DNA of 64,000 bases from Gammaproteobacteria bacterium Ga0077554. GTDB taxonomy: Bacteria > Pseudomonadota > Gammaproteobacteria > Ga0077554 > Ga007554. Below are positions 1-53,925 of this stretch, one piece after another. The notes under the pieces are model-generated. The model was not told the origin of the DNA, did no database searches, and saw only the letters and a program-made list of their open reading frames with translations. A program made the translations under genes and the position numbers. Location: NCBI GenBank assembly GCA_001464585.1, contig LNFF01000031.1, forward strand, positions 67,148 to 131,147, written 5' to 3'. Positions within the stretch are counted from its first letter, which is position 1; the number at the start of each line of letters is the position of its first letter.

Positions 1-821
1 TCGGCCCCCAGCGGGCAATGCTTCACGGGCACGCTGAAGCAAGGCCGCATCCCGCTCAGGTGACCAGATAGTCATCATGTGGCCAAAAATCACCGCATCT
101 ATATCCTTGGGAAAGGGGTCAATGAAAAAATCACCAGGATGCGTATCAATACGCGCTGACAGTCCCGCCTTGGCAATTTTTTTCTTGGCCATTTCACAAG
201 CTGTCTCACCGTCAAAAATAGTGACTTTAAGATTAGGGTGCGCCTGCGCCAGAGTGATGGCATTAGTACCGTCTCCACCCCCGGCATCCACCAGGTGCTT
301 GATCTCGTCGAATACCGGGAGCTTCGCCAAATCAGCATTCGCCGAACGGGAGAGGCTGCTCATGGCATCGTGAAACACTTTTGCGATAAAAGGGTTATGC
401 GGCAAACGATGGTAGATATTGTCCGCATCCCCTTTGAAATGGCGCAGGCCTACGTTCTTGAATTGCTTCAGTGAATCAACAAGGTCGACGGCGGTGGGAT
501 AAACTATGTGGGCTTGCCAACCCAGGACGTCGATCATGTTGTCCGGACTCTCGCGTACAAGCAATCTTTCCACAATTGGTGCATTGCGGAACCGCGCCCC
601 ATCTTTTTGTACGAGCTTGAGTGCGGCAAGGCCGGTCATTAGTATTCTTGCGGGCTGGGACTTGAGTCCGATCTTCGCGGCAATCTCATCCCGCGTCAGG
701 TTAGGGGTCTTTGAAAGCGTGTCAAACACCTCCAGTTGCACACCGGCCCAAAGTAGTTGGAAGGCGGTGTGACCGCAGGCAATAAGCACTAATACATCAA
801 AATCCAAGTCTTCCTTCATGG
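1..821 (-). CDS. Class I SAM-dependent O-methyltransferase (COMT/CrtF-like); C-terminus runs off window start
   Basis: Minus-strand ORF open to the window edge; ATG at 821-819 (MKEDLDFDVLVLI...). Hand translation shows the SAM-binding motif LVDAGGGDG and a downstream R..HPGDFF..P motif typical of Methyltransf_2 O-methyltransferases. Not in the ORF track because it has no stop within the window. Confidence 0.7.
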
Positions 822-1020
822 TTGTCTCCCGCTTTTCAAAATAGTAAATGAAAGATACACAGAAAGCGATCAGAATGCCACCCTGTGGTTATTACCGGAT
901 GTAACGACCGGTCGACTGGAAACTTTAATCCATCCCCGGATCCTCAGAGTAAGGATCACATCTTGAATGAAGCGCCGACTTGACCCAGGCATGTCGGGTT
1001 CGGGGGGTGCAAAAAGCAGG

Positions 1021-2085
1021 TCAGTTCGTGTGTGCAGCGCTACATATAATTTCATTTAACGGTAGTCGACCCGAAACCTTGATTACGCCAATGGGCTTGC
1101 CTATACGCAATAGGCAATGCACGGTATTCTCATGGCCATACTCGGAACGGACGCGGTTTTGCAGCGCCAAGGCATGAGGGATGCATTGCTCCGGCACGCT
1201 GTTTAACTCCAGTCTGTTCAGTAAATCAGCCACCACATAATAAGGCTGGGCTGATAAGCCCTGCTCGGTCACGCTCAACCACACTTGTTGCAGGCAGCGT
1301 CCGGCATCAAAGGCTGCTGCATGATCGGAAGATCCAATGATCGCGACAACCAAGGGCGCTTTCTGGAAATTAGCTGCTTCGATAGCGGCAAACAATTTGT
1401 ATGCCCGGATACGGTTCAACCATTGTAGCCGATTCCAATCGGACATCAACTTCAGCAAACCCACGCCTCCGGGCGGCAATGCCAGTGTATCGACATGCAG
1501 GCCGCTAGCAAAATCTTCCGGCGAATCACCGTAGCGCAGACTTGCCGCAAACCACTCATTTGCCTCACGGGTCTGGAAACGGATCTCCGAAGCCTGTCTG
1601 ACCCAATCCGCTGTTTGACGGATACCGGCTCCCATAATTGTCCTGACGCCCACGTTATTAACCTGACAAGCCGCCAGCCGGTGAGCGACATCTGGGGCAA
1701 TCTCGGGACGATAGGGTAAACGATTTGTGTGGCGCAGTTTCCAAAGAGGTGTGTTGGATGGTTCAATGGCATTTGCTTGCCCCGTTACAGGGCCTCGCGC
1801 AAAAACGCCATCTTCATCAGGTATACCAAGATACCAAGAGGCCATATCCAAGCCAAGGGACTGCATTGCCCAAACCAGATTTTCGGCAGCAGCGCCCAAT
1901 GCAAGCCTGGTGGCGTGATAATCAGCCGGGAAGCCACCACGACGGCGTACCCGACCAGTCAGGGTGCTGGTATTATTATCCCAGTCAAAACACCATGGCT
2001 GGGAATTGTCAGCGGAGGGAGCGCTCCCGGCCGCTTCTATCAAAAATGCAACTTCTGGAATATAGAGTTTAGGTGTGGATATCAT
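1021..2085 (-). CDS. Nitroreductase-superfamily FMN oxidoreductase, two-lobed Acg-like architecture (354 aa)
   Basis: SAPSADNSQPWCF motif (the SxxNxQPW nitroreductase signature) near the N-terminus; about twice the length of a single nitroreductase domain. RBS GAGGGG 6 nt upstream of the ATG at 2085. Confidence 0.65.
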   Translation of the reverse strand: MISTPKLYIPEVAFLIEAAGSAPSADNSQPWCFDWDNNTSTLTGRVRRRGGFPADYHATRLALGAAAENLVWAMQSLGLDMASWYLGIPDEDGVFARGPVTGQANAIEPSNTPLWKLRHTNRLPYRPEIAPDVAHRLAACQVNNVGVRTIMGAGIRQTADWVRQASEIRFQTREANEWFAASLRYGDSPEDFASGLHVDTLALPPGGVGLLKLMSDWNRLQWLNRIRAYKLFAAIEAANFQKAPLVVAIIGSSDHAAAFDAGRCLQQVWLSVTEQGLSAQPYYVVADLLNRLELNSVPEQCIPHALALQNRVRSEYGHENTVHCLLRIGKPIGVIKVSGRLPLNEIICSAAHTN

Positions 2086-2368
2086 AGTTTTCCCCTCTCA
2101 TTCTTCATAACCTTCACTCACCCCCTGCCCCGCAATAGCAATCCTTTTGCCTCGCAGGATGTACTGCTCCGAGCACCGTTGAGGAATCTTAAGCAAGATC
2201 CCTCAATAATGATATGTACCATCCTACTCTTTGGGACATAATTGATTATATTAAAAATTTTTACCACTATCTAAGGAGGAGCACTCACTGTCAACGGGTT
2301 TTAATCCACACTTTTCATGATAGTACAAAACCAATTCGACGGTGATTTTATTTTAGTAAAAAGCTAAT

Positions 2369-2434
2369 AAATTGATTAGCTTGATATTTAATTGTCTCTT
2401 TTTTGAGACAATTAAATATCAAGCTAATCAATTT
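2369..2434. repeat. 66-bp perfect inverted repeat (30-bp arms, TTTTTT loop) containing a TGTCTC-N6-GAGACA core
   Basis: Checked base by base: 2369-2398 is the exact reverse complement of 2405-2434. Lies in the AT-rich divergent intergenic region between the nitroreductase and the acyltransferase genes. Confidence 0.9.
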
Positions 2435-2457
2435 CCATTCTCAAAAAGCAGGCTATC

Positions 2458-2475
2458 TGTCTCCTCATAGAGACA
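2458..2475. promoter_or_regulatory. Second TGTCTC-N6-GAGACA palindrome (operator-like), about 60 bp from the centre of the 66-bp inverted repeat
   Basis: tgtctc ctcata gagaca: same half-sites and spacing as the core of the 2369-2434 palindrome. Confidence 0.5.
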
Positions 2476-2731
2476 ATAATATCTCCCAATAAAACTATAA
2501 AATTAAATATGTATATGATTTTATTAATCTATTTAATTTTGGCCGAATTCTTGCATATAACGCTCCTTGGGCATCTTTGATGTTTAGGTTGTACCGGGTA
2601 ATGAGCAAGGGTTATTCCTGCGATTTTTTCAAAGAAAAATCCAGCACCCATCCAAAATATTACCGTACAATTTCTGGGCAACGGACAATATGACAGGGCT
2701 AGTCTCAGCAGGGACGGCAGGAGAGCTAATT

Positions 2732-3610
2732 ATGATTAACCGAGACATGGGCGAGCAAGTAATCGGCACCATAAAAAATAAAAATATATTGAATACAGGT
2801 GCATCACATTCATCCGGTGGTTTATCCCCCTTACACACACATAACATCAACGAATTAATCAAGAGCTTTTCACGACATTTCGAGATAGTGTCAGCAACTA
2901 CGGAGGAAGAAATCAGGCAGTCCTGGAAATTACGTTATCAGGTGTATAGTGTAGAAAATCACTTTGAAAACCCGGATGATAATCCTGACCAGTTAGAACG
3001 TGATGAGTATGACGCACATTCTGCCCATAGCCTGTTAATACATCGCGCAACGGGATTGGTCGTTGGTACGGTAAGGCTGATTCTCCCCAATCCTGCCAGC
3101 GTTGATGCTTTATTTCCCATTGAAGCGCATTGCGGAACGAGCTTTAATGGAGAAGCATTTAATCGCGCCACTTTGCCACGGCGCTCTTTGGCAGAAATCT
3201 CTCGTTTTGCCATATCGAAGGAATTTAAAAGAAGAATTCCTGATAAAAGTAATGTATTTGGTTCTCCCGATATTAACCAGGGACTCCAGCAGGAGATGGC
3301 TGATTTGGAGCGGCGGCTGATCCCTCACATTACTGTCGGGTTATTTGCTGCAATAGTACGTATGAGCGCAATGCATGGCATTACCCACTGGTATGCAGTA
3401 ATGGAGCCGGCGTTGCTACGCCTCTTGAAGCAGTTCAGTATCAACTTCCAGCCCGTTGGTTCCGCAGTTAATTACCATGGAAAACGCTACCCATGTGTTG
3501 CAACGGCCAGGGATGTGCTTGCACAAATGGAAGTTGGTTGCCCTGAAATCTGGAGACTTATTACCGATGAAGGCAGAATCTGGCCTTCCGCACATTCTCA
3601 GGCAGCATAG
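2732..3610 (+). CDS. LuxI/FeeM-like GNAT N-acyltransferase (N-acyl amino acid synthase / PEP-CTERM-system-associated acyltransferase family), paralog 1
   Basis: Autoinducer-synthase-like N-terminal pattern LRYQVY..E.DEYD....LL....G.VVGTVRL.LP; conserved C-terminal HWYAVMEPALLRLLK. Preferred start is the ATG at 2732 with GGAGAG RBS; the track start at 2690 is an alternative. Confidence 0.65.
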   Translation: MINRDMGEQVIGTIKNKNILNTGASHSSGGLSPLHTHNINELIKSFSRHFEIVSATTEEEIRQSWKLRYQVYSVENHFENPDDNPDQLERDEYDAHSAHSLLIHRATGLVVGTVRLILPNPASVDALFPIEAHCGTSFNGEAFNRATLPRRSLAEISRFAISKEFKRRIPDKSNVFGSPDINQGLQQEMADLERRLIPHITVGLFAAIVRMSAMHGITHWYAVMEPALLRLLKQFSINFQPVGSAVNYHGKRYPCVATARDVLAQMEVGCPEIWRLITDEGRIWPSAHSQAA

Positions 3611-3618
3611 GAACACCG

Positions 3619-3646
3619 GTGTGACGTAGGTGGCTCTTACGTCACG
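3619..3646 (+). terminator. Hairpin (gtgacgtagg...cttacgtcac) immediately after paralog 1 stop; weak U-tract
   Basis: 9-bp stem seen in sequence 9 nt after the stop at 3610. Followed by gctttcccc rather than a clean T-run, so an intrinsic terminator is uncertain. Confidence 0.3.
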
Positions 3647-3988
3647 CTTTCCCCTTGGATGATTCGCGCCAGGCGCTGGCTCCTCTTTTTGGCCGTATGG
3701 TGATTGGTTTATTCAAAGACAACATCAAGCTTTAACCCCGCCTATACCCATCCCTCTATCACCATCTAATTTCACTACATATCGCCATCACCTGCCCGAT
3801 GAGCAATTTATTGGAGCCGGGCAGCTTTGACGGGAACTTTGTGATGTTGCGCACACTTTATGAAGCACTCACCTGAACATCAGCACATGTTCTCACAATA
3901 AAAAATTCATTAAAGTGTGATTTATGTCCGGACAGCGGCGCTTTTCCGGCGTAAGGTTGGAACATCTTAAAAGTTATCAGGATCCGGT

Positions 3989-4810
3989 TTGATCCATCAA
4001 GGACCAGGAGTGATAAAAGTGAATGAGCTAACGGAGAGTTTTTCCAAATATTTTAAAGTGGCAGTTGTGGCGCCAGGCGATGATGCATCGTTACGACAAG
4101 CACTGCATTTACGCTATCAGGTGTATTGTATAGAGCATCCTTTCGAAAAACCTGCGGGCACGGATGAAATCGAGCAGGATGAGTTTGATACATATTCCGC
4201 CCATAGCCTTTTACTCAGCCGCCGCAACGATGAGGTGGTGGGCACTGTGCGACTGGTCTTACCCCGGCGGGAACAGCCGCATATCTTGTTTCCCATTGAG
4301 CAGCATTGCGGAAAATTCTTTGATAAAAAATTGTTTGACACCAGCACGTTGCCCCGTGGTTCTATAGCCGAAATATCGCGTTTTGCAATTTCAAAAGAGT
4401 TCAAGAAACGCCTCATGGATACCGAATATCCCTGGGGTGCCAGTAATTTAAATGAACACGAAACAGAACATATGAAGGTGCTGGAACGTCGCATCATTCC
4501 CCATATCACATTAGGTTTGTTTTTAGCGATAGTGCGCATGAGTGTGCGGCATAATATTACGCATTGGTATGCGGTAATGGAACCGGCATTACTGCGTTTA
4601 TTGAAAAAATTTAGCATTGAATTTATACCGCTTAGCCCCATGGTTGATTACCATGGCAGCCGACAACCTTGTGTAGCAGAACTTGCGACGGTATTAGCGT
4701 CTATGGAACGCAATTGCCCGGACGTTTGGGCGCTGATTACCGACAATGGTGCGACATGGCACAGCGCGCTCGAAGCAGAGCAACACGCCTCCGTTAAACG
4801 CGTGGCATAA
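3989..4810 (+). CDS. LuxI/FeeM-like GNAT N-acyltransferase, paralog 2 (tandem duplicate of 2732-3610)
   Basis: Same motifs as paralog 1 (LRYQVYCIEHPFE, EQDEFDTYSAHSLL, VVGTVRLVLP, ITHWYAVMEPALLRLLKKF), roughly 55 percent identical by eye. The track start is a TTG at 3989; a GTG at 4019 has a better RBS (AGGAG, 9-nt spacing). Confidence 0.65.
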   Translation: MIHQGPGVIKVNELTESFSKYFKVAVVAPGDDASLRQALHLRYQVYCIEHPFEKPAGTDEIEQDEFDTYSAHSLLLSRRNDEVVGTVRLVLPRREQPHILFPIEQHCGKFFDKKLFDTSTLPRGSIAEISRFAISKEFKKRLMDTEYPWGASNLNEHETEHMKVLERRIIPHITLGLFLAIVRMSVRHNITHWYAVMEPALLRLLKKFSIEFIPLSPMVDYHGSRQPCVAELATVLASMERNCPDVWALITDNGATWHSALEAEQHASVKRVA

Positions 4811-5025
4811 TACAGCGCTCCCCCGCCTACGTAGCAGGCATTACCTTGCCCGTGCTAATTGTGTACTTTAATGCCCGCCATTCAGCGAAAATGGGGTGTC
4901 CAGCGCTCTACGAAATGTAGCCATTCATTCAGCCTGTCCTGTCGTGCCTGGAGGCACCTACTTCTGGCGCACACAGCGCACGCTACTCGTGTTTCGGTTA
5001 ACGCCGCGCATGGTCAGATGCTGCC

Positions 5026-5403
5026 TCATGACGCCATCAAATCCTCCACAGCCACGCCCAATACTCTGGATAGCGCGAGCAACACGCTGGCTTTACCTTC
5101 GTGCTTTCCCGACTCAATTTGTGACAGATAAGCTTGGCTGATGCCGGCCCGATCCGCCAGTGCGGAGACCGTCAGACGGCGGTGCTCCCGCCATACACGA
5201 ATAGGCGGCTCACCCTCCGCCAGACGGTGCGCAATGCTGGCGGGAACAAGCTCCTCCTCACCACGCTCCAGCCGCACCCGGATGCGGTCATAGTCCTGAA
5301 TATCCTCCAGCAGCTCGGCGCCCTCAATCAGTCGCTTGTATTCCGCATAGGGAATCACCGCATATTCAGGTTCGCCGTTACGCTCGATAATTTGTGCTTT
5401 CAT
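5026..5403 (-). CDS. XRE-family HTH antitoxin (HigA-like) of a type II TA pair
   Basis: C-terminal HTH (LTVSALADRAGISQAYLSQIESGK). Its ATG overlaps the stop of the upstream RelE/ParE remnant in an ATGA arrangement. Confidence 0.65.
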   Translation of the reverse strand: MKAQIIERNGEPEYAVIPYAEYKRLIEGAELLEDIQDYDRIRVRLERGEEELVPASIAHRLAEGEPPIRVWREHRRLTVSALADRAGISQAYLSQIESGKHEGKASVLLALSRVLGVAVEDLMAS

Positions 5404-5591
5404 CGCGTATACACCCCACCTCGCGGGGTCACTTTGATCACCATGATCACCAGCGCCCCACTATCCACCTCAAACACAATCCGCCAATCCCCTGCGCGCA
5501 TCCGGTAACTGGGACGCCCTTCCAGCTTGATGACATTGCGGTGCTGCGGCGTATTCGCGGGCTGATTTGGATGAGTTGTGTGCCAGATAAT
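5400..5591 (-). pseudogene. RelE/ParE-family toxin remnant, N-terminally truncated (no in-frame start codon)
   Basis: Hand translation of the minus strand gives ...HRNVIKLEGRPSYRMRAGDWRIVFEVDSGALVIMVIKVTPRGGVYTR*, a recognisable RelE/ParE C-terminal half. The frame is closed by a stop at 5592-5594 and contains no ATG/GTG/TTG upstream of the conserved region. Only about 14 nt separate it from the Uma2 stop. Confidence 0.5.
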
Positions 5592-5608
5592 TCAGTCAAA
5601 CCTGCCTG

Positions 5609-6238
5609 TCAGACATTCTCAAAGAACGCGGTCAGACGCACCTGAAACGCCATGCTCTGCAACTCGACCACGTCGTCTTTCCCAAAGTCATAAAGCGCCC
5701 AATGCCCGGTGCTGTCTCGCCTGAAGCAGTCGGCGCGGAGGCTGCCGGGGTCGATCAGCAGGTATTCCTCCAGCGTGGGGATTTGCCTGTAGATGGCGAA
5801 CTTGTCGCCTCTGTCGAAGGCGGCTGTGGAGTCGGAAAGTACTTCGACGATCAGCCTGGGGTGGCTCATGAACAGTTTGGCCTGGTGGTCGCGTTCGTCA
5901 CAGGTGACGAAGACATCCGGGTAGAAGAAAGCGTTCGCTGTTTCGACCCGGAGTTTCATGTCGGAGATATAGGCGCGGCAGGAGCCTGCGCGCAGGTGAT
6001 CTTTCAGCAGGGCAAACACATTCCCGGCGATTGTCACATGCGTCGTGCAGGGATGCGCAAGTGTCGCGGGAGGCAGGATGCCGGGAGCGACCTCGCGCCT
6101 GGCGCCGACCATGGCGAATACCTCGCCGTTGACATATTCATGTTTTTCGACCTGGGTGTTTTCCCATTCCAGGTAGTCGTCAGGCATCAGGTGTGCAACA
6201 GACTGTGGTAATCCCATTTTTAGACCCTTACTTTGCAT
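5609..6238 (-). CDS. Uma2-family (DUF820) PD-(D/E)xK endonuclease, carrying an in-frame 17-aa repeat-encoded insertion
   Basis: MPDDYLEWENTQVEKHEYVNGEVFAM...YPDVFVTC pattern of the Uma2 family. The REVAPGILPPATLAHPCTT segment is encoded by repeat copy 1. Confidence 0.65.
   Translation of the reverse strand: MQSKGLKMGLPQSVAHLMPDDYLEWENTQVEKHEYVNGEVFAMVGARREVAPGILPPATLAHPCTTHVTIAGNVFALLKDHLRAGSCRAYISDMKLRVETANAFFYPDVFVTCDERDHQAKLFMSHPRLIVEVLSDSTAAFDRGDKFAIYRQIPTLEEYLLIDPGSLRADCFRRDSTGHWALYDFGKDDVVELQSMAFQVRLTAFFENV
6041..6091. repeat. Dispersed 51-bp hairpin-containing repeat, copy 1, intragenic and in frame in Uma2, reverse orientation
   Basis: Sequence cgtcgtgcagggatgcgcaagtgtcgcgggaggcaggatgccgggagcgac. 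Reverse complement matches copies at 8541, 21014 and 22414. 51 nt equals 17 codons. Confidence 0.8.
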
Positions 6239-6371: not shown

Positions 6372-7619
6372 TTACGCTAGTTTCTCCGGAAAGAGTCCCG
6401 GCATCCAACGCGACGCGAGACTGGCGGGGAAGGCCAGACGCAAAGGGACGCGCGTGCTTTCGGAGACCAGTACACCGCGTTCGCTTAAAGCCGCCACGAC
6501 CCGCCGGGCATGTCGCTCACTCACTCCCAGTATGCCTGCCACATCGCTACGCGGCAGCGCTCCCCGGTATAAGATGGCCTCCAGAAGGCTGCCCGCTTTG
6601 GCTGGTAACGTGCCGCCACGGACTTCTTCTTCGACCCACATCAGGATGCGGGTACGCAGCCGATCCGGCTGAACCAGTTCTTCCATAAACTTTACCTGAT
6701 CAAGGCAGGTTTCGAGAAAGAATCGCGTGAAGGACACCAGCGCTTCCTCGCTCAGATTACCCCTGCCGTCCAAGTCATTACGCCGTTGTAAATCGCATTG
6801 CGCAAGATGATTCTTGTAGGTGCTCACATTTCGCGCCAGGCCGCGTGCGATGGACCAGACACCGCCAGTATCGAGAGCGTCCATCAACATCGCATGGGAC
6901 ATCAGGCGCGCCACGCGGCCATTACCATCAAGGAACGGGTGCATCCAAAGTAGTCGGTGATGCGCGGCAGCGGCAGCGATGATAATTTCCGCTTTGCCGA
7001 GATTGCTGTAAGCGCGCTCGAAATGATCAAGAAAGCGCGGCAGTGCGCCAGGGCTGACCGGTATGTGCTGGCCGACCCTGACATGGCGTTGACGCAGTTT
7101 GCCTGGAATGACCCGCAGACGCTCACCCGCGTCTGGATCGTCCGTCCATAGCAGAGCATCGGGCAGCAACTCACCAAACCGCCGGTGAATGTCACAGATA
7201 CCTGCAACACTGGCTGCATGACCACGTAGATTGCCTGCGTCGATCCATTGCTGAACAGCTATATGCGCCTTGGCTTCGAGTTGAAGGTTGCGCTTTTGCA
7301 CGTTGGTGCTGTAGTCGTTCTTCAGCGCGCGCTCGATATCGACCGGATGGGTGTCGTGACCCTCGATCAGGTTGCTGTAGTAACAGTTCATCGCCCGCAC
7401 CAGATCAGCCAGCGCCGTGAGCAGGCCTTGCGGAAGGCTGCGACGAAACCCTGCCGAATACGCCGCCAGCTCGACTGCAAGATCGGCAAGGTCGGCACGT
7501 TGGCGCGAGCTTTCAGCAATCCGCATTGGCTCCATGGAAGACACCCCCTCGCCGCTGTCGGGAGGCGCTGGGATGTCCGGCATTATGGCCGCTTTAATGT
7601 CCTCACAAAAATCCTTCAT
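6372..7619 (-). CDS. Fic-family protein (AMPylator/Doc-like) with an N-terminal inhibitory-helix-like motif and a C-terminal winged HTH
   Basis: HPFLDGNGRVAR Fic motif. SNLIEG matches the (S/T)xxxE(G/N) inhibitory motif. C-terminal region (VAGILGVSERHARRVVAALSERGVL) looks like a wHTH. Confidence 0.7.
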   Translation of the reverse strand: MKDFCEDIKAAIMPDIPAPPDSGEGVSSMEPMRIAESSRQRADLADLAVELAAYSAGFRRSLPQGLLTALADLVRAMNCYYSNLIEGHDTHPVDIERALKNDYSTNVQKRNLQLEAKAHIAVQQWIDAGNLRGHAASVAGICDIHRRFGELLPDALLWTDDPDAGERLRVIPGKLRQRHVRVGQHIPVSPGALPRFLDHFERAYSNLGKAEIIIAAAAAHHRLLWMHPFLDGNGRVARLMSHAMLMDALDTGGVWSIARGLARNVSTYKNHLAQCDLQRRNDLDGRGNLSEEALVSFTRFFLETCLDQVKFMEELVQPDRLRTRILMWVEEEVRGGTLPAKAGSLLEAILYRGALPRSDVAGILGVSERHARRVVAALSERGVLVSESTRVPLRLAFPASLASRWMPGLFPEKLA

Positions 7620-16667: not shown

Positions 16668-17618
16668 TTATTCGCGGTAGATGGTGACCCGATTTCGACC
16701 GTTGGCTTTGGATTGATAGAGCGCAGTATCCGCCCGCCGGATCAATTCTTCGTAGCAGGGAATACCGGGCACCCATTGTGACACACCCAGGCTGATGGTA
16801 ACGGGCAACGCCAAATCACCGAAGGTTATGGGGTTGGATCCCATGGCATGGCATAAACGCTCGGCAACGATTAAAGCGCCCTCCAGGGGCGTCTCCGGGA
16901 GCACAACGGCAAATTCTTCGCCGCCATAGCGGGCAAAAGTGTCGACATCACGCAGACATTCGCGCAGGCGTTTGGCAGTATTGCGTAACACTTCGTCCCC
17001 CGCCAAATGACCATGGACATCATTGACGCGTTTGAAGTGGTCGATATCAAGCATGATCAGCGACATCATACTGCCATAGCGTTGCGCGCGGCTGAACTCC
17101 TTATTCACTAGCTCTTCCAGATAGCGGCGGTTGTGGATCCCGGTCAGACCATCGCGATTGCTGGCCTCGGCGAGCGATTTCAAGGCGCTTCTGAGCATGC
17201 GTTGCGTGATACTGGTATCGGTCACATCGAAGAGCGTAATACACACATAGGCAACTTCATCATCTGCGTCTTTCATCGGCAGAAAGGTGCAGTTTTGGTA
17301 CATGGCGTCAATGCCGCCGGTCACAGGACGGTTGTGGCGAAAGTGAAACAAATAAGGCCGTTGTTCCCACGAAGTGAAGGAAAAATTCTTGATCACAAAA
17401 ACATTCGTGATTTTACGTTGCAGCCAGGTAACCGGTAATTCCGGGAAACTCTCGAACAGATTATGGCCCACCACCTCAGCAGCGGAACGACCACTGTTGG
17501 TTTCCATGAAGCGATTCCACAGCACGACATTCATGTCACGATCAACAACGAAAACGCCGACACTCACCCGGTCAACGATGAAGCCAAGCAATTCCGGTGA
17601 TGGCGTGGGGCGATCCAT
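16668..17618 (-). CDS. PAS-GGDEF diguanylate cyclase
   Basis: N-terminal PAS-like region, RYGGEEFAVVL active-site motif and upstream inhibitory-site-like RRAD. Confidence 0.7.
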   Translation of the reverse strand: MDRPTPSPELLGFIVDRVSVGVFVVDRDMNVVLWNRFMETNSGRSAAEVVGHNLFESFPELPVTWLQRKITNVFVIKNFSFTSWEQRPYLFHFRHNRPVTGGIDAMYQNCTFLPMKDADDEVAYVCITLFDVTDTSITQRMLRSALKSLAEASNRDGLTGIHNRRYLEELVNKEFSRAQRYGSMMSLIMLDIDHFKRVNDVHGHLAGDEVLRNTAKRLRECLRDVDTFARYGGEEFAVVLPETPLEGALIVAERLCHAMGSNPITFGDLALPVTISLGVSQWVPGIPCYEELIRRADTALYQSKANGRNRVTIYRE

Positions 17619-18751: not shown

Positions 18752-21700
18752 TCAGGCGCGCTGTTTCAGCGAGAGAAGACGATCCAGCGGACAGGGCTTA
18801 TCTATGGCATACCCTTGCGCGTAGTCGACACCAATCTCGCAAAGCAGGTTGAGAATTTTGTCGTTTTCGACATATTCCGCCACCACTTTTTTATTCATGA
18901 AATGTCCAACCTCACAGATCGATTTTACCAACGCATAGTCGATGGAATTGACTTCCATATTTCTTACAAATACGCCGTCGATTTTAATGAAATCAACCGG
19001 CAAATTTTTAAGGTATGCATAGCTTGACATGCCACTTCCAAAGTCATCCAGCGCAAACATACAACCCGTTTTCTTAATCTCCGTTATAAATGCCGCCGCA
19101 TCCGAAAGATTGGTAATGCCGGCAGTTTCCGTGACCTCAAAACATATTTTATGCTGCGGGATCTGCGTGTTATTCATCTGCTCAAGGACAAAACCTATAA
19201 AGCTATCGTCGGTGATGCTTTGGCCTGAAAGATTGATGGTAAAAGCGGTAATATCCTCAAGGGCCTCGCGATGGTCCGCCATCCACTTAAAAACCTTTGT
19301 AATTACCCAGCGGTCCACTGCCGCCATACGCCCATACCATTCTGCCGCCTGTATGAATTCATGGGGAGATATAATATTTTTCTGGTCTTCCGCGACGCGC
19401 AGGAGTATCTCAAAATGGGGTTGTACCGAGGTGTCTCCATTAATCGGGACTATGCGCTGGCAGAAAAGTAGCAGGCGGTCTTCCTCCAGGATCCTGTCGA
19501 TTTTCCCCACCCATTTCATTACCGCGCTGTGCTGAACCAACTGGAAATTGTCAGCATGGTAGACTTGTAACCGGTTGCCTCCAGCAACTTTAGCAAGATT
19601 GCAGCTCGACTGTGCTGCCTGTAACAATTCTGTAATGTTATTACCGTGCGTATCCACCGGAACCAGCCCCATGCTCAGGGACACCGAAAAACGTTTGTCC
19701 TCCCACTCAAAGCGATAACCAGCAACGGCGTTAATCTGTTGCTCGGCAATAGCCCGTGCATCATCGGGAGAGGCGTTCTCCACAAGCATGCCGAACTCAT
19801 CACTACCCAGCCGCGCCAGCACGCCTCGGCCACTCAGCGTTTTCTTGAGTAACGCCGCCAGCTCCTTGAGCAGCGTATCACCGCCCACAGACCCGCAACT
19901 GTTATTGACCGCGCTGAACTTATCCACATCAACAAGACACAGCACATGTCGCAGACCGATCTGCTGCGCGCTCACCACAGCTTTGCCCAGCATGGACTCA
20001 AATTCCCGCCGGCTTATCAAGCCTGTCACCTGATCGTGGGTGGTTTCATAGAGCAGTTGCTTATGCAACTCCTGCAGTGCCGTATACTGCGCGCGATCCA
20101 TCGCCAGATCATCGGCATTGTCCAAGGGTATGGCATTGCCCAGACGCATTTTCCTGGCAAGATCCTTCGCACCAAGCACCTTCTCCTTCAGCCCCCGGGA
20201 ATTCACGAATACATAGACACCGCTGGTGGACTTGCTGACCCACGCAACCCGGAGCCGCTGCGCTTTTTCCTCATGCGTCAAAAACAGCATCCAGTCCCCT
20301 TCCTTGAGGCGGCGCGCTTGCTTCAACCACTTTTTCCATATCACATCGGCAGGATCTTCTGCGCTTTCTGGTTCATCGCCCCACTCTGCAACCACAGGGA
20401 CTTTCTCACATACCGTGACCACGTCCTTCACATTCTCTGCATAGGCCTTATCCTGCGCCTGGGTCAGCTTGTCCAACTGTACCAGAATCTTCGAAAATAC
20501 CTCGGAAGTGCCGTCGAACTCCTTGTTAATCCGGTCTATCAGACGGTCAATCGTATTCTTGATCGGGCTCTGGCTGGAACCAGTCTGTTCATTATCATGA
20601 ATTTCCAGTTGAGCAATCTTGTTTAGCACCTGGCGCGCGACATGGGCCCTGTCAAGAAACACTGTATTGTCCGCAAGGGTCAGCTTGAGAATAGGCAACT
20701 CGAGCCGCTTGAGCCAGGGTCTCACGCTCTCAGCGACGAGTGGATCATCCTGAATAGCATGAAAAAGATCACCAGCAACTTCCATGACACTGCTGTCATG
20801 TGCGCTGATCTCTTTATCAGCGCTTCCTGGATTAGCACGTTCCAGAACAGCGCGAACAAGGGATTTGATGTTTCTGGGCGCATTATTGCCAGCGATCTGA
20901 TCACTGTAATCTGCTTGCAAGCTGGCCAAAGCCGAAATGACATCCGAGACTGCGTATACCTGGCCGGGTGGCTGCGTTGATGGTGGCGGCTCACGATATG
21001 GCATTTGCACATCCGTGTGCGGCGGTCGCTCCCGGCATCCTGCCTCCCGCAACACTTGCACATCCGTGTGCGGCGCAAATACAGTTTCCGTCGGGCGCGA
21101 CACCTGATGCGCAACACCATCCCGAAGTCTGCGTATCTCGTGAGAGACCTGATATAGATTGCGTCCTCCCGGGCCAGCATTCCCAGTGATATTCGGGGGG
21201 ACATGCGGGGACGGCGCTACATCTCGTGGTGGCGCCGTATTTTCCCTAAGCACCCTGGATTTGAGATCGGGCAATACACCGAAGTCTACCAGGACAGCGT
21301 TGAGTTTTTGGTAAAGATCATTTGTTTTTTCAACAAGCACATCCTTGAAAACAGCGAGGCAGGCCGTGTTAGCCACCGGATCCAACCCCAGGGGTTTAAT
21401 GGCACTCAAGAAAGACTCTACAAAAAGGCCGGGGCCATAAGGGTTGTTATCTTTACCAATCGGTACATTACATACCATGGAGAGGCGTTGCTCTATCGCA
21501 AAGAGCAATTTCTTGTGCGTGGACTCAACATTGTAGTTAATATCCGAAATGGATAACCAGTCGGTCAGCGCATCATCTTCGACCAGCGACAACTCAGACA
21601 TGGGCACGCCATTTTTATCAGACGTTGCCTTCGATTGTGCTCTCAGTTGTTTGGGGGCAATATTTGCCAGGCGCTTATGGACGGCGACACGGAAAAGATC

Positions 21701-22381
21701 CGTCAGTGTTACGGCTGATCGATTCAGTACGTCACGTGCGTTAAAATACGAGTTCTGTTCCTTATGATTTTTTGTATCACGTGATAGTTCAAACATGCGG
21801 TTCGGCATTTTTGAGTTCACACTTTGAGAAATCCCATCAAGGGCGCTTTCGATTACACGGTTACATTCTTTCATGATCGTGTCGCCTTTCATATTATCGG
21901 TCATGTCACCGGTAACATTCATGGAAACATGGGATGTTTTTTCATCGCCAGGACTCGACCCCCTCGCGATGCTCCCCCCACTCGACATTCCAATGGCTGG
22001 CTGGATGGCAAAATCCTGCATGATCTGCAAAGCGGTCAGGTCAGGGTTAATGAACGCCATACCTGCGCCATCTTCAAAAGTACGGACAACACGTGCCTGA
22101 AATTGTAGCCGGTTATCCTGGTTTGTGGCCTGGACGATACAGTGGATGGTAATAATGTCGCCAGCAGCAGGTAAATGTCCCTGGGTGGCCGCCGCCAGAC
22201 TGGTAGGTTTCTGGTAGCTTAGAAGCATGCCGCCAATGCAGAAGTTACGTATGACGCATGACAGATGGGCGCCTCCTGCAACCCTGATGAATGCAGGCAG
22301 ATCTAAAGAATAACGCTGAAATGCACGCTTCCCTGCAGGATCAGCACACGTCTGCGATGGTGTTGAATAGTTGTTGTGCAT
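18752..22381 (-). CDS. Large c-di-GMP signalling protein: N-terminal PilZ-like domain, long middle region of unknown function, GGDEF domain with GSDEF variant motif, C-terminal EAL domain
   Basis: PilZ-like QRYSLDLPAFIRV...NFCIGGM. GGDEF region RLGSDEFGML. EAL region FEVTETAG...DDFGSGMSS...KIDGVFV. Preferred start is the ATG at 22381; the track start at 22504 lies inside repeat copy 4. Contains repeat copy 3 in frame. Confidence 0.65.
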   Translation of the reverse strand: MHNNYSTPSQTCADPAGKRAFQRYSLDLPAFIRVAGGAHLSCVIRNFCIGGMLLSYQKPTSLAAATQGHLPAAGDIITIHCIVQATNQDNRLQFQARVVRTFEDGAGMAFINPDLTALQIMQDFAIQPAIGMSSGGSIARGSSPGDEKTSHVSMNVTGDMTDNMKGDTIMKECNRVIESALDGISQSVNSKMPNRMFELSRDTKNHKEQNSYFNARDVLNRSAVTLTDLFRVAVHKRLANIAPKQLRAQSKATSDKNGVPMSELSLVEDDALTDWLSISDINYNVESTHKKLLFAIEQRLSMVCNVPIGKDNNPYGPGLFVESFLSAIKPLGLDPVANTACLAVFKDVLVEKTNDLYQKLNAVLVDFGVLPDLKSRVLRENTAPPRDVAPSPHVPPNITGNAGPGGRNLYQVSHEIRRLRDGVAHQVSRPTETVFAPHTDVQVLREAGCRERPPHTDVQMPYREPPPSTQPPGQVYAVSDVISALASLQADYSDQIAGNNAPRNIKSLVRAVLERANPGSADKEISAHDSSVMEVAGDLFHAIQDDPLVAESVRPWLKRLELPILKLTLADNTVFLDRAHVARQVLNKIAQLEIHDNEQTGSSQSPIKNTIDRLIDRINKEFDGTSEVFSKILVQLDKLTQAQDKAYAENVKDVVTVCEKVPVVAEWGDEPESAEDPADVIWKKWLKQARRLKEGDWMLFLTHEEKAQRLRVAWVSKSTSGVYVFVNSRGLKEKVLGAKDLARKMRLGNAIPLDNADDLAMDRAQYTALQELHKQLLYETTHDQVTGLISRREFESMLGKAVVSAQQIGLRHVLCLVDVDKFSAVNNSCGSVGGDTLLKELAALLKKTLSGRGVLARLGSDEFGMLVENASPDDARAIAEQQINAVAGYRFEWEDKRFSVSLSMGLVPVDTHGNNITELLQAAQSSCNLAKVAGGNRLQVYHADNFQLVQHSAVMKWVGKIDRILEEDRLLLFCQRIVPINGDTSVQPHFEILLRVAEDQKNIISPHEFIQAAEWYGRMAAVDRWVITKVFKWMADHREALEDITAFTINLSGQSITDDSFIGFVLEQMNNTQIPQHKICFEVTETAGITNLSDAAAFITEIKKTGCMFALDDFGSGMSSYAYLKNLPVDFIKIDGVFVRNMEVNSIDYALVKSICEVGHFMNKKVVAEYVENDKILNLLCEIGVDYAQGYAIDKPCPLDRLLSLKQRA
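20997..21064. repeat. Dispersed repeat, copy 3 (one 51-bp unit plus a 17-bp flanking direct repeat), intragenic and in frame in the PilZ-GGDEF-EAL gene
   Basis: cacatccgtgtgcggcg | gtcgctcccggcatcctgcctcccgcaacacttgcacatccgtgtgcggcg. Encodes PHTDVQVLREAGCRERPPHTDVQ on the minus strand. Confidence 0.8.
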
Positions 22382-22413
22382 CACTTCCTTAGCCTGACAC
22401 AGGAGGGTACCAC

Positions 22414-22565
22414 GGTCGCTTCCGGCATCCGACCGCCATGGATGGCGGAAGTGTCGAAAATGCAGGAGCATTTTTTCGACCTGCCTCTGGCGACACTTGT
22501 GCATCTCGGCAACTGCTCCTGCGTTGCTCTACCTTCCGCCATCCCTGGCGGTCGCATGCACGGCG
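22414..22565. repeat. Dispersed repeat, copy 4: composite of about 150 bp with two extra hairpin-containing segments nested in the unit
   Basis: ggtcgcttccggcatcc ... ctgcctctggcgacacttgtgcatc ... catgcacggcg, interrupted by segments containing ccgccatggatggcgg and ccgccatccctggcgg palindromes. Lies at or just upstream of the 5' end of the large c-di-GMP gene. Confidence 0.7.
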
Positions 22566-31619: not shown

Positions 31620-33044
31620 ATGAGTGATAAGAAAAAATTTAGCGCGGGTGTTAAAGAATATCGACAGAACTACTGGATGCCCAATTATGTGCCTCTGGAC
31701 ACCGATATTCTAGCGTGCTTCAAGATCGTCCCGCAAGCGGGTGTAGACCGTGAAGAAGTCGCCGCTGCCGTGGCCGCCGAATCTTCCACCGGCACCTGGA
31801 CCACAGTGTGGACCGACCTGTTGACCGACATGGATTATTACAAGGGCCGCGCCTACCGCATCGAAGACGTGCCCGGTGATGACACCTGCTTCTATGCTTT
31901 CGTTGCTTACCCGATTGACCTGTTCGAAGAAGGCTCCGTGGTCAACGTGTTTACCTCGCTGGTGGGTAACGTTTTCGGCTTTAAAGCCCTGCGTGCGCTG
32001 CGCCTTGAAGATGTGCGCTTCCCCATCGCTTATGTGAAAACCTGCGGCGGCCCGCCCAGCGGTATTCAGGTTGAGCGTGACAAGATGAACAAGTACGGTC
32101 GTCCATTGCTGGGCTGCACCATCAAGCCCAAGCTCGGCTTGTCTGCCAAGAACTACGGCCGTGCGGTATACGAATGCCTGCGCGGTGGCCTGGATTTCAC
32201 CAAGGACGACGAGAACATTAACAGCCAGCCCTTTATGCGCTGGCGTGACCGCTTCCTGTTTGTGCATGACGCAACCCTGTCCGCACAAGCTGAAACCGGC
32301 GAGCGTAAAGGCCACTACCTGAATGTCACCGCACCGACCCCGGAAATGATGTATCAGCGTGCTGAGTTCGCCAAAGAAATCGGCGCACCGATCATCATGC
32401 ACGATTACATCACCGGCGGCTTCTGCGCCAATACGGGTCTGGCCAACTGGTGCCGTGACAACGGTATGCTGCTGCATATCCATCGCGCCATGCACGCTGT
32501 AATCGACCGTAACCCGCACCACGGTATTCACTTCCGCGTGCTGGCAAAGATTCTGCGCCTCTCCGGCGGTGACCATCTGCACTCGGGCACCGTAGTTGGC
32601 AAGCTCGAAGGTGATCGCGCGCCGACCCTGGGTTTTGTTGACTTGATGCGTGAATCATTCATTCCTGAAGACCGCTCGCGCGGCATTTTCTTCGATCAGG
32701 ACTGGGGCTCCATGCCTGGCGTATTCCCGGTGGCATCCGGTGGTATTCACGTCTGGCACATGCCGGCACTGGTGAACATTTTCGGCGATGATTCGATTCT
32801 GCAATTCGGTGGTGGAACGCTCGGCCATCCATGGGGTAACGCCGCAGGTGCCTGCGCTAACCGTGTCGCACTTGAAGCCTGTGTTGATGCGCGCAATGAA
32901 GGCCGTGAAATTGAACGTGAAGGCAAAGAGATTCTTGCCAACGCCGCCAAGACCAGCCCCGAATTGAAAATCGCCATGGAAACCTGGAAAGAGATCAAGT
33001 TCGAGTTTGATACCGTGGATAAGCTGGACGTAGTGAACCGTTAA
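31620..33044 (+). CDS. cbbL: RuBisCO large subunit, form IA
   Basis: 474 aa; [20 protein letters not shown]...[24 protein letters not shown]...; carboxysome-type gene context. Confidence 0.95.
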
Positions 33045-33112
33045 TTTTTGGCTCGCTTTTTCTGAGTTGCATGATACGTGGGTGTTAAAACGCCTCTGCA
33101 AATGACCACTTT

Positions 33113-33153
33113 CGCCGTATATGTCGCCATTCATGAAATGGCAATATACGGCG
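33113..33153 (+). other. Stable imperfect hairpin in the cbbL-cbbS intergenic region
   Basis: cgccgtatatgtcgccatt catgaa atggcaatatacggcg. Possible processing or stability element between the large and small subunit cistrons. Confidence 0.5.
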
Positions 33154-33175
33154 ATTCAAAAGAAAGGAAATAAAA

Positions 33176-33508
33176 ATGTCTGATATTCAAGATTACAAAT
33201 CAACGCCCAAATTTGAAACCTTTTCGTATTTGCCAGCGATGACGCCGGAAAAAACCCGCCGTCAGATCGCCTACATTGTGAGTCAGGGCTGGAACCCGGG
33301 CATTGAACATGTAGAGCCTGAACGCGCTTTTAATTATTACTGGTATATGTGGAAGTTGCCGATGTTTGGTGAGCAGTCGGTCGATGTCATCATCGCTGAA
33401 CTGGAAGCCTGTCACCGCGCGCATCCCAATAACCACGTGCGACTGATCGGCTACGACAATTACTCGCAGAGTCAGGGCAGCGCTTTCGTGGTGTTTCGCG
33501 GCCGGTAA
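33176..33508 (+). CDS. cbbS: RuBisCO small subunit
   Basis: 110 aa, [20 protein letters not shown]...[13 protein letters not shown]. Confidence 0.95.
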
Positions 33509-33532
33509 TCCGATGCCTAGGTAAGCAACCGA

Positions 33533-33562
33533 TAGTGGGCGATCCGGCACAGGCTCGCCCAC
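33533..33562 (+). other. Hairpin (gtgggcga...tcgcccac) between cbbS and csoS2; possible partial terminator or attenuator
   Basis: 8-bp GC-rich stem with 12-nt loop, no clear U-tract. Confidence 0.35.
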
Positions 33563-33613
33563 GTATCACATGAATTGCCGATTGTAGTAAAAGTGTAATG
33601 GAAGGATAAAAGC

Positions 33614-35890: not shown

Positions 35891-35895
35891 TCTGA

Positions 35896-37527: not shown

Positions 37528-37776
37528 ATGAAAATTTGTCAGGTGGAAAAAACCCTGGTTTCGACCAACCGGATTAAAGAGATGGGGCATCGCCCATTGC
37601 TGGTGGTGAAAGAAAAAGGTGGTACACGCAGCATCGCAGTAGATGCCGTGGGCTGCATCCCAGGCGACTGGGTGATTTGCGTAGGCTCATCTGCTGCACG
37701 CGAAGCCGCAGGCAGCAAGGAATATCCCAGCGACCTGACCATCGTCGGCATCATCGACCATTGGTCAGAAGACTGA
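37528..37776 (+). CDS. csoS4A: Carboxysome vertex protein CsoS4A (EutN/CcmL family)
   Basis: 82 aa, MKICQVEKTLVSTNRIKEMGHRPLLVV... Confidence 0.85.
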   Translation: MKICQVEKTLVSTNRIKEMGHRPLLVVKEKGGTRSIAVDAVGCIPGDWVICVGSSAAREAAGSKEYPSDLTIVGIIDHWSED

Positions 37777-37777
37777 C

Positions 37778-38041
37778 ATGGAGATTATGCAGGTGGTGTC
37801 AGATCTCGTAGCCACACGCCGGGTGCCCGGCCTGTATAGCGCCTCGTTGCGGGTAGTGCGTGACGCCAAGGGCAGGCTCAATGTAGCCACCGACCCGGTG
37901 GGTGTGCCTGAGGGTAAATGGGTGTTTACGCTGGCGGGATCACCCGCACGCTATGGCATGGGTAATTACAGGATTCTTACTGACCTAACCATCGGCGGCA
38001 TTATTGATGGATGGGATCCGGATACTGGGCGCACCGGGTAA
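37778..38041 (+). CDS. csoS4B: Carboxysome vertex protein CsoS4B (EutN/CcmL family)
   Basis: 87 aa paralog immediately after csoS4A. Confidence 0.85.
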   Translation: MEIMQVVSDLVATRRVPGLYSASLRVVRDAKGRLNVATDPVGVPEGKWVFTLAGSPARYGMGNYRILTDLTIGGIIDGWDPDTGRTG

Positions 38042-38118
38042 AAACGAAGTCGTGGTTGTTTGAGAAAACAGTTTTTATTAACGTAGCTTTATATTAACGT
38101 AAACTTAAGGAGTGCAAG

Positions 38119-38418
38119 ATGGCGATTGAAAGACAGGGTATTGCATTAGGCATGATCGAAACACGCGGCCTGGTACCGGCGATTGAAGCCGCAGACGCAA
38201 TGACCAAAGCAGCGGAAGTACGCCTGATTGGGCGTCAGTTTGTCGGTGGCGGTTATGTCACAGTGTTGGTACGTGGCGAAACCGGTGCGGTAAACGCCGC
38301 CGTGCGTGCCGGCGCAGATGCGTGTGAGCGCGTGGGTGATGGCCTGGTTGCAGCGCACATCATTGCCCGCGTACATAATGAAGTGGAAAACATTCTGCCG
38401 ACGCAAGTCTCGGCTTAA
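38119..38418 (+). CDS. csoS1: Carboxysome shell hexamer protein CsoS1 (BMC-H), copy 1
   Basis: 99 aa, [41 protein letters not shown]. Confidence 0.9.
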   Translation: MAIERQGIALGMIETRGLVPAIEAADAMTKAAEVRLIGRQFVGGGYVTVLVRGETGAVNAAVRAGADACERVGDGLVAAHIIARVHNEVENILPTQVSA

Positions 38419-38473
38419 AGGTGTATCGTTTAACAACGTTTAATAACTAAATGTAAAGAGAAGGAAATATATC

Positions 38474-38773: not shown

Positions 38774-38856
38774 TATATCACCGGGTTCAGCCTCGGTTTA
38801 AAGAAGCGTCGTTTAATAACGCTTAACAATCAGATGAAAAGAGAAGGAAATATATC

Positions 38857-39186: not shown

Positions 39187-39227
39187 GACCACGGTCTGAG
39201 CTGAACCCTCTACTGAAGAGTATAACC

Positions 39228-39662: not shown

Positions 39663-39666
39663 GATC

Positions 39667-39927: not shown

Positions 39928-39982
39928 TACGCGCCCCACATAGGTGGGGCACAGACAGGTCACCGAGGCGAATCGAGGCGAT

Positions 39983-40860: not shown

Positions 40861-40883
40861 ATTGCATTAAGAGGTTTGTAGAA

Positions 40884-53923: not shown

Positions 53924-53925
53924 AA

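Follow-up and report, generated by a model that had tools for sequence, protein, structure and literature searches.

A candidate gene cluster for a tailored N-acyl amino acid beside PEP-CTERM genes in an uncultured gammaproteobacterium

The 64,000-nucleotide stretch analysed here (the window; positions 67,148 to 131,147 of contig LNFF01000031.1 from Gammaproteobacteria bacterium Ga0077554) opens with a divergent gene cluster that encodes two tandem acyltransferases, a flavin oxidase of the nitroreductase superfamily and a methyltransferase. The methyltransferase gene (1..819, minus strand) runs off the edge, the window holding the first 273 of its 342 codons and the remainder lying beyond position 1; the full-length gene occupies L001 11267-12295 on the source contig. 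The oxidase is encoded by a stand-alone open reading frame (ORF) of 354 aa on the same strand (1021..2085). A divergent spacer of 646 bp (2086..2731) separates these tailoring genes from the two synthase genes on the plus strand, ACT1 (2732..3610, 292 aa) and ACT2 (4019..4810, 263 aa). ACT1 starts behind an AGGAG Shine-Dalgarno sequence, and the gene calls of the source contig place its start at the same position. ACT2 is called from a GTG at 4019 behind a conserved AGGAG and not from the in-frame TTG at 3989, so that the inter-paralogue spacer (3611..4018) measures 408 nt instead of the 378 nt counted from the TTG.

A preliminary description of this DNA had recognised the tandem paralogous acyltransferases by a shared motif and had noted their divergent transcription from a two-lobed nitroreductase and a methyltransferase. 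Both observations hold on the evidence of the ORFs and Pfam: the motif, in the form LRYQVY...E.DE(Y/F)D...VVGTVRL.LP, is present in both synthases, which share ~55-56% identity, and only the start of the second had to be moved to 4019. The same description reported several hairpins between the paralogues. The 378-nt spacer length that it gave is right for the TTG start. Of the hairpins, what remains is an 8-bp stem (3621-3645) and a weak terminator-like stem of 5 bp (3668-3680, site extending to 3690), neither of which is conserved in a relative with 82% identity (L090). The intervening ~600 bp between the divergent genes had been called more AT-rich than its flanks, and the spacer at 2086-2731 does have a GC content of 0.368 (minimum 0.28 in 300-bp windows), compared with 0.542 for the whole window. 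The GC content of region 1-4810 (0.478) is likewise lower than that of the remainder of the window (0.547), and third-position GC is 0.43-0.47 in the ACT genes and 0.61-0.68 in housekeeping genes.

Both acyltransferases belong to TIGR03694 (NasY), with scores of 280.6 bits for ACT1 and 274.2 bits for ACT2 against a cutoff of 111.95 and with model positions 2-240 of 241 covered. In Pfam, ACT1 also matches PF13444 and PF21926 FeeM, the latter model scoring 43.9 and 36.4 bits against 27 for the two synthases. The best Foldseek structural matches of an AlphaFold model of ACT1 (AF2; predicted local distance difference test, pLDDT, of 80) are LasI, TofI, FeeM and BjaI. Scores so far above the TIGR03694 cutoff, together with these fold matches, uphold the earlier assignment to LuxI/FeeM-fold N-acyltransferases of the exosortase-associated family. 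TIGR03694-type synthases of N-acyl amino acids were reported by Craig, Cherry and Brady (2011, as cited in PMC7293339 and PMC11072679), and family membership suggests N-acyl amino acid synthase activity for ACT1 and ACT2. ACT1 carries an N-terminal extension of ~45 aa (window 2732-2870, starting MINRDMGEQVIGTIKNKNILNTGASHSSGGLSPLH) that is absent from ACT2 and from most family members and is kept in L090. It is predicted to be disordered, with pLDDT below 50 for residues 1-34 and ~35-45 residues affected overall.

The oxidase matches only NCBIfam models that contain the flavin-dependent-oxidase (FDO) branch of the nitroreductase superfamily, namely the Rv1355c-family (TrzS) model (positions 378-702, E 1.2e-25), PRK14851 (positions 328-637, E 8e-23), PRK14852 and, below its cutoff, the Acg family. 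Modelled with AF2 (pLDDT 91), it is a monomer of two lobes, and the best structural match in the PDB is 2YMV, the Mycobacterium smegmatis homologue of Acg (E 1e-11, TM 0.64), and the Acg-like, two-lobed nitroreductase partner proposed earlier is thus recovered by its best solved structure. A sequence search against the PDB returned spurious designed-repeat matches, with 2YMV only at E 0.7. In an hhalign comparison, the oxidase-family profile aligned over its full length with the nitroreductase domain of ThiF-nitroreductase fusions found beside N-acyl amino acid synthase genes (probability 99.9%, E 1e-32, 333 columns), and pairwise identity to these fusion-type domains is 24-29%. As the counterpart of TyzC, the stand-alone oxidase is predicted to act as a C-alpha/C-beta desaturase.

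The set of activities that can be seen within the window, acylation, flavin redox chemistry and methylation, proved to be incomplete, as a third enzyme is encoded just outside it. On the source contig, which was located by exact protein match and stems from an activated-carbon metagenome (ERZ922818 / SRR2905791), a ThiF gene of 300 aa follows 23 bp past the end of the methyltransferase gene, beyond window position 1. ThiF scores 381 bits against NF006077 (cutoff 266). With scores under the full-length cutoffs, it also hits the ThiF portions of PRK14851 (334 bits), of PRK14852 and of the Rv1355c family (79 bits); the opposite halves of these same three models match the window oxidase. The nearest solved structure to ThiF is that of the oxazolone-forming TcdA, and the two align at the nucleotide-binding motifs GxGGxG, DxD/NxNRQ, Lys and Asp. 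The oxidase, methyltransferase and ThiF genes form one co-directional run on the source contig, divergent from the synthases, and are followed by a PEP-CTERM gene and prsT.

The order past window position 1 is the methyltransferase remainder, ThiF, the PEP-CTERM gene, prsT, HicAB, a DegP-like protease, HSP20 and MacB. The PEP-CTERM protein scores 26.3 bits against TIGR02595 (cutoff 16), and PrsT, a 931-aa tetratricopeptide repeat (TPR) protein encoded on the opposite strand to the PEP-CTERM gene, scores 828.8 bits against TIGR02917 (cutoff 312.2). All three genes, ThiF, the PEP-CTERM gene and prsT, lie within ~6 kb beyond the window edge. According to the preliminary description, the window shows neither a LuxR nor an exosortase or PEP-CTERM gene. 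This is true of the window ORFs that were scanned, and a regular-expression search across these ORFs found no PEP-CTERM-like C-termini. The PEP-CTERM gene is missing because the window ends before it, and the view of the cluster as standing apart from the PEP-CTERM system is contradicted by the source contig. The description had named an exosortase/PEP-CTERM locus immediately upstream as the finding that would make this a known arrangement; the PEP-CTERM gene and PrsT are indeed found there, and no exosortase, prsK or prsR gene was seen in 21 kb of source contig sequence. Upstream of the PEP-CTERM gene (L001 13500-13860) are three direct copies of TGTCGGATTTCTTTACA, ~110-120 bp apart, followed by a sigma-54 promoter, TGGCATGGTATCTGCAT. 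These elements match the published TTTACA-type motif (motif 1) and sigma-54 site (motif 2) upstream of proteobacterial PEP-CTERM genes (Haft et al., 2006; PMC1569441) and differ from the GTCTC-N6-GAGAC elements of the synthase promoter described below.

The methyltransferase had been described as a COMT/CrtF-type O-methyltransferase. The Pfam family stands (PF00891, 70.9 bits; PF08100 dimerisation domain, 36.1 bits); O-methylation is less likely than C-methylation, as the catalytic His/Asp dyad is lacking and, among characterised homologues, the closest is SibL, which methylates a ring carbon of 3-hydroxykynurenine (PMC4426599). SibL is also the best PDB match (4QVG, E 4e-71), with 38.6% identity over 334 residues, that is, over the full length. 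The catalytic base of SibL, Tyr134, is conserved as Tyr136, and so are the phenol-binding Tyr295 (Tyr297) and the carboxylate-binding His335 (His335). At the position of the O-methyltransferase His/Asp dyad, SibL has Val248/Ile249 and the window protein Thr250/Ile251. The two enzymes differ in the residues that hold the amines of the SibL substrate: Tyr288 and Asp292, which hold the free alpha-amine, are replaced by Ser290 and Gly294, and Tyr99, which binds the ring amine, by Trp101. Because of these replacements, the substrate is expected to be other than that of SibL. The pattern of a kept catalytic Tyr and a lost O-methyltransferase His/Asp recurs in all eight synthase-linked methyltransferases compared, and so do the residues at the Tyr295, His335, Tyr288 and Asp292 positions; at the Tyr99 position one of the eight has Leu and not Trp. 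These residues suggest that the enzyme methylates a ring carbon adjacent to a phenol in an amino acid substrate without a free amine, plausibly an N-acylated aromatic amino acid.

The divergent spacer contains a compact set of putative control elements. A 66-bp inverted repeat (2369..2434), described earlier as a palindrome of that length, has 30-nt arms (2369-2398 and 2405-2434) that are 100% complementary around a non-palindromic TTTTTT centre. It is single-copy in the 64-kb window, with zero matches expected by chance, and its core is the first of two GTCTC-N6-GAGAC palindromes (site 1, 2394..2409; site 2, 2459..2474). The 64 kb contain no further match to this pattern, against an expectation of 0.01, and both sites fall in the divergent spacer. 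Site 2, a putative enhancer-binding-protein site, is 81 bp upstream of a sigma-54-type -24/-12 promoter, TGGCCGAATTCTTGCA (2540..2555, plus strand), which precedes ACT1 and has the canonical GG-N10-GC spacing (-24 GG/-12 GC). The whole spacer aligns with its equivalent in L090, with conserved blocks at the promoter and palindrome motifs; the promoter block is invariant between the two, and both palindromes are conserved. A palindrome 81-83 bp before a TGGCA-N6-TTGC promoter is also found in L005, L006 and L007 as well as in L090. Inverted repeats stand at the equivalent place in L090 (26-nt arms, 88%) and L005 (25-nt arms, 92%), differing in arm sequence and conserving the TTGATTA...TAATCAA ends. 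Synthase transcription is probably driven from the sigma-54 promoter and activated through its own GTCTC-N6-GAGAC enhancer sites, and the 66-bp inverted repeat is probably an enhancer/operator element that serves both divergent promoters.

The window ORFs that were scanned include no gene for an enhancer-binding protein. For the divergent oxidase operon no sigma-54 promoter was found, the spacer offering only weak sigma-70-like matches, no more than in the shuffled expectation. An Rfam scan of positions 1-6000 returned no family at threshold; the 66-bp inverted repeat drew only sub-threshold hits to hairpin families (microRNA precursors, RNA-OUT). Since this repeat has no second copy in the 64-kb window, its interpretation as a repetitive extragenic palindrome or miniature inverted-repeat transposable element (REP/MITE, a repeated mobile element) was rejected. 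A start at the sigma-54 promoter would give ACT1 a leader of ~165 nt (2567-2731), which has no Rfam match and contains blocks conserved with L090, such as GGTTATTCCTGCGATTTTTT.

The conservation of the cluster was assessed by scanning one genome per species, which yielded 80 loci with a TIGR03694 relative, mostly in metagenome-assembled genomes (MAGs) of Gamma-, Alpha- and Betaproteobacteria. Neighbours were counted by ORF-level BLAST within 10 kb of the synthase, and all counts are lower bounds because many of the contigs are short. A ThiF homologue is near the synthase at 40 of the 80 loci, and at 28 it is part of an ORF of at least 600 aa. Three representative long ORFs are di-domain proteins of ThiF and an Acg-like nitroreductase, the architecture of OxzB. 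PrsT is near the synthase at 25 loci, ThiF and PrsT are both present at 19, and two or more synthase genes also occur at 19. A separate oxidase gene (6/80) and the methyltransferase (4/80) are much rarer neighbours. The oxidase has many metagenomic relatives with 60-90% identity, mostly nameless, otherwise annotated as 'hypothetical protein' and once as 'nitroreductase'. The NCBIfam model PRK14852 has a three-domain architecture of synthase, ThiF and nitroreductase, and FeeM-type synthases encoded in L085 and L087 match its N-terminal part (positions 82-212). This architecture and the ThiF-nitroreductase fusions link the three activities by gene fusion.

Relatives also differ in how the tailoring genes are arranged. 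The exact layout of the window, including the tandem synthases and the downstream Uma2, Fic and RlmL genes, is found in L090. On betaproteobacterial contigs, a FeeM-type synthase, the oxidase, the methyltransferase, ThiF, a PEP-CTERM protein, two PrsT genes and a sigma-54 response regulator follow one another in a tight co-directional string. Identity to betaproteobacterial homologues is 74% for the window oxidase and only 42% for ThiF and 51% for the methyltransferase. The closest genome in the species collection, the JANOOA01 MAG (L005 and L008), keeps the tandem synthases (76% and 88% identity) and has a fused ThiF-nitroreductase of 660 aa and no methyltransferase, compared with the split oxidase, methyltransferase and ThiF genes here. 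The tailoring cassette therefore appears to be exchangeable between close relatives, and it looks mosaic.

Several characterised pathways combine the activities predicted here. OxzA makes N-decanoyl-tyrosine, and OxzB, a ThiF-nitroreductase fusion, converts it with ATP to an oxazolone in vitro (De Rond et al., bioRxiv 10.1101/2020.06.11.147165). In Mycobacterium tuberculosis, the same chemistry is carried out by three proteins, TyzA (a FeeM/LuxI-fold acyltransferase), TyzB (a ThiF cyclase) and TyzC (a flavin oxidase) (Grigg et al., PMC10404671). TrzS (Rv1355c) is the fusion version for tryptophan, and the nearest solved oxidase structure is again 2YMV (PMC12856293). Kallscheuer et al. and Sauer et al. 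tied NasY-type synthases (one to four per cluster), ThiF, nitroreductase and methyltransferase genes to N-acyl dehydrotyrosines with ring C- or O-methylation, and the stieleriacine cluster of Stieleria maiorica contains a PEP-CTERM protein gene (PMC7293339, PMC12479983). The preliminary description had suggested that the combination could make an undescribed acylated product; this is no longer tenable for the chemistry, since synthase, ThiF and nitroreductase-type oxidase have been published together for tyrazolones, tryptazolones and N-acyl dehydrotyrosines (bioRxiv 10.1101/2020.06.11.147165; PMC10404671; PMC12856293; PMC12479983).

The likeness to the Tyz cluster extends to its architecture. 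The Tyz cluster has a separate FeeM/LuxI-fold acyltransferase, a ThiF-like ATP-dependent cyclase and a monomeric flavin oxidase of ~340-370 aa with an Acg-like lid, and its tyzA is divergent from tyzCB just as the synthases here are divergent from the oxidase/ThiF operon. However, TyzA lies outside TIGR03694 and is largely confined to mycobacteria, and the Tyz cluster has no methyltransferase, second synthase or PEP-CTERM context. OxzA/OxzB of Pseudoalteromonas rubra and other proteobacteria and TrzA/TrzS (Rv1356c/Rv1355c) provide the three activities that are predicted here, and the ThiF and oxidase of the present cluster match both halves of the fusion models, although here the domains are on separate genes with a methyltransferase gene between them. 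The clusters for the stieleriacines, for thalassotalic acid and for kyonggic acid share the NasY synthases (one to four) and the separate genes for ThiF and the nitroreductase; a methyltransferase is present in some. They come from other phyla and genera, the methyltransferases proposed there are SfmM2-, UbiE- or MfnG-like whereas the present one is SibL-like, and their biochemistry itself is only partly proven. To the exosortase-associated synthases with the PrsK/PrsR/PrsT regulon, the cluster is related by full membership in the family model and by the adjacent prsT and PEP-CTERM genes; it departs from the PrsR-type regulon (PMC1569441) in its synthase promoter, which has GTCTC-N6-GAGAC and not the PrsR-type motif.

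The gene content, family memberships, fusions and conserved neighbourhoods documented above make a small acylated molecule the likely product. We think it probable that the genes in the window are half of a PEP-CTERM/XrtA-locus-associated cluster for a tailored N-acyl amino acid lipid of the oxazolone/N-acyl-dehydro-amino-acid class. In such a pathway, each NasY-type synthase would attach a fatty acyl group, taken from acyl-ACP (acyl carrier protein) or acyl-CoA, to an amino acid at its alpha-amine. The amino acid would most likely be aromatic (Tyr or Phe), as it is in all homologous pathways that have been characterised, and the two paralogues would probably differ in acyl-chain or amino-acid preference. 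By homology to the TrzS family and to OxzB-type domains, the flavin oxidase would desaturate the C-alpha/C-beta bond with O2. ThiF, judged by homology and by the gene fusions, would adenylate the free carboxylate, allowing the amide oxygen to close a 5(4H)-oxazolone ring. This ring may stay intact or be hydrolysed, yielding the N-acyl dehydro-amino acid. The active-site residues suggest that the SibL-like enzyme would methylate the aromatic ring, likelier on the carbon next to the phenol than on oxygen, and probably on the N-acylated substrate. The product would most likely be an N-acyl aromatic amino acid that is both methylated and desaturated, or the corresponding oxazolone.

A number of observations weigh against this reading. 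Half of the TIGR03694 loci are without ThiF within 10 kb. No oxazolones were observed in proteobacterial or planctomycete producers (Sauer et al., PMC12479983), and the ThiF step may for this reason be transient or serve another purpose. The oxidase scores below the cutoff of the Acg family (NF047509; 102.6 against 199 bits) and is thus a relative in the same subgroup and not a member. All fusion-model scores of ThiF and the oxidase are below the full-length cutoffs, as expected for single-domain proteins, and it is through the NCBIfam Rv1355c-family (TrzS) model, domain architecture and structure that they are tied to characterised enzymes. The choice between C- and O-methylation depends on some ten aligned residues, and SibL Asp132 is Asn in the window protein and Asn or Thr among the synthase-linked homologues. 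Product specificity, for the amino acid as for the acyl chain, cannot be read from the sequence. In the control region, the sigma-54 pattern by itself is not rarer than chance in the window, so that the promoter is supported by its conservation and fixed spacing. Across the family, the pattern occurs in 7 of 96 synthase upstream regions against a 4% background, and the sigma-54 and GTCTC architecture was accordingly rejected as a family-wide feature; it is confined to close relatives of the window.

Three other explanations of the locus deserve consideration. The ThiF, oxidase and methyltransferase trio could modify a protein or peptide, in the manner of ribosomally synthesised and post-translationally modified peptide (RiPP) or E1-like systems, the target being the adjacent PEP-CTERM protein or exosortase-cleaved C-termini; the acyltransferases would then lipidate that protein, and the product would be a modified sorted protein. 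ThiF-family substrates characterised before OxzB were all polypeptides or tRNA (bioRxiv 10.1101/2020.06.11.147165; PMC12596934), and trios of an E1-like enzyme, an FMN-dehydrogenase and a methyltransferase are typical RiPP tailoring sets. The PEP-CTERM gene directly follows ThiF here, in L085-L088 and in L090, and the joint presence of ThiF and PrsT at 19 of the 80 loci is in keeping with such a role. Nevertheless, for each of the three core enzymes the closest relative that has been characterised works on N-acyl amino acids in free form (PMC10404671, PMC12856293), the synthase-ThiF-nitroreductase fusions argue for channelling of a small molecule, and the methyltransferase keeps the SibL residues that bind the carboxylate and ring of the substrate. 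A PEP-CTERM homologue is near only 5 of the 80 loci, many loci with a synthase and a ThiF-nitroreductase being without one, and no YcaO or small precursor peptide gene was seen on the source contig. We regard protein modification as unlikely.

Alternatively, the synthases might supply the PEP-CTERM system with plain long-chain N-acyl amino acids, beside an operon that is independent and adjacent by chance, with ThiF in sulfur-carrier or cofactor chemistry, the oxidase as an Acg-like stress flavoprotein and the methyltransferase unrelated. That half of the family loci are without the cassette and that its form differs in a close relative such as JANOOA01 would suit this view, and the higher betaproteobacterial identity of the oxidase than of ThiF and the methyltransferase marks the cassette as a separable module. 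Against it, the cassette in any form always adjoins a synthase (40/80 loci), is fused to it in proteins of the PRK14852 type, and is co-operonic in L085-L088, where the genes overlap or nearly abut; no ThiS/MoaD-like carrier gene is adjacent on the source contig. An accidental neighbourhood is, on balance, quite improbable. It is barely credible that ACT1 and ACT2 are LuxI-type acyl-homoserine-lactone (AHL) synthases of a quorum-sensing circuit with unrelated neighbours. PF00765 Autoind_synth does score just over its gathering score (25.9 and 31.6 against 24 bits), and LasI and TofI are among the best structural matches, but the TIGR03694 scores are about ten times higher and the NCBIfam AHL-synthase/TraI models give the two synthases only 17-21 bits against cutoffs of 250-292. 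Moreover, the scanned window ORFs include no LuxR-type gene, the conserved partners of the family are ThiF and nitroreductase genes and not LuxR, and in reports as well as in source annotations, TIGR03694 members figure as synthases of N-acyl amino acids (Craig et al., 2011, as cited in PMC7293339).

The surroundings of the cluster offer further context. Genes of toxin-antitoxin or mobile type border it on both sides: those for proteins of the XRE-HTH (5026-5403), Uma2 endonuclease (5609-6238) and Fic (6372-7619) kinds on one flank, and HicA/HicB on the other, beyond PrsT (L001 18084-18546). The order of synthase and Uma2 is kept in L007, L009 and L090, with Fic following in L007 and L090 only, which indicates an old neighbourhood and not a recent insertion. 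A tRNA-linked island was considered and rejected, as the only tRNAs of the window are at ~22.9-23.1 kb, away from the cluster. An alpha-carboxysome/RuBisCO operon at 31620-44053 includes genes for the RuBisCO large subunit (31620-33044), CsoS2 (33614-35890), the CsoSCA carbonic anhydrase (35896-37527), CbbQ (40884-41687) and a VWA-domain CbbO-like protein (41708-44053), and because of it the host is probably a chemolithoautotrophic gammaproteobacterium. The window also encodes a PAS-GGDEF diguanylate cyclase (16668-17618) and, on the minus strand, a 1250-aa signalling protein with PilZ, DUF1631, GGDEF and EAL domains (18752-22504). A beta-oxidation operon on the minus strand (52118-59785), 47 kb from the cluster, encodes acyl-CoA synthetase-like and FadB-like proteins, a thiolase and a large acyl-CoA dehydrogenase. 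Acyl-CoAs of the beta-oxidation pool are the presumed substrates of OxzA-type enzymes.

The kind of cluster found here is essentially already described: it is an uncultured-gammaproteobacterial member, in a PEP-CTERM locus, of the class that combines NasY synthases, ThiF and a flavin oxidase, with or without a methyltransferase. As a discovery it is incremental. The new points are minor ones, namely the SibL-like methyltransferase, the clade-specific sigma-54/GTCTC control region, the swap of cassettes between relatives, and the pairing of the exosortase-associated acyltransferase with an oxazolone-synthetase-type module at no fewer than half (40 of 80) of the species-level loci of uncultured environmental proteobacteria. 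The literature searched ties the synthase to such a module only for a few cultured producers. It contained no paper joining oxazolone and exosortase beyond coincidental co-citation, and a review of the ThiF family leaves PEP-CTERM unmentioned.

A more speculative idea, to which we give little weight, is that the oxazolone (azlactone) is a reactive lipid electrophile that works within PEP-CTERM/exosortase sorting, as an acceptor, an anchor, a lipidating agent for proteins or exopolysaccharide, or a controlling ligand, and not as a free signal or antibiotic. If true, such a role would account for the location of NasY synthases and ThiF-nitroreductase genes next to prsT and PEP-CTERM genes across Gamma-, Beta- and Alphaproteobacteria as well as Planctomycetes, and for the sigma-54 control that the synthase genes here have in common with the PEP-CTERM genes. 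The pathway proposed here, a tailored N-acyl amino acid lipid from the PEP-CTERM locus, provides a concrete and testable product prediction for genes that are annotated nearly everywhere as 'hypothetical protein', those of the oxidase family especially. The compact gene set and its regulatory signature offer a handle on what N-acyl amino acids do in PEP-CTERM/exosortase biology, the formation of flocs and biofilms by bacteria of wastewater and sediments included.

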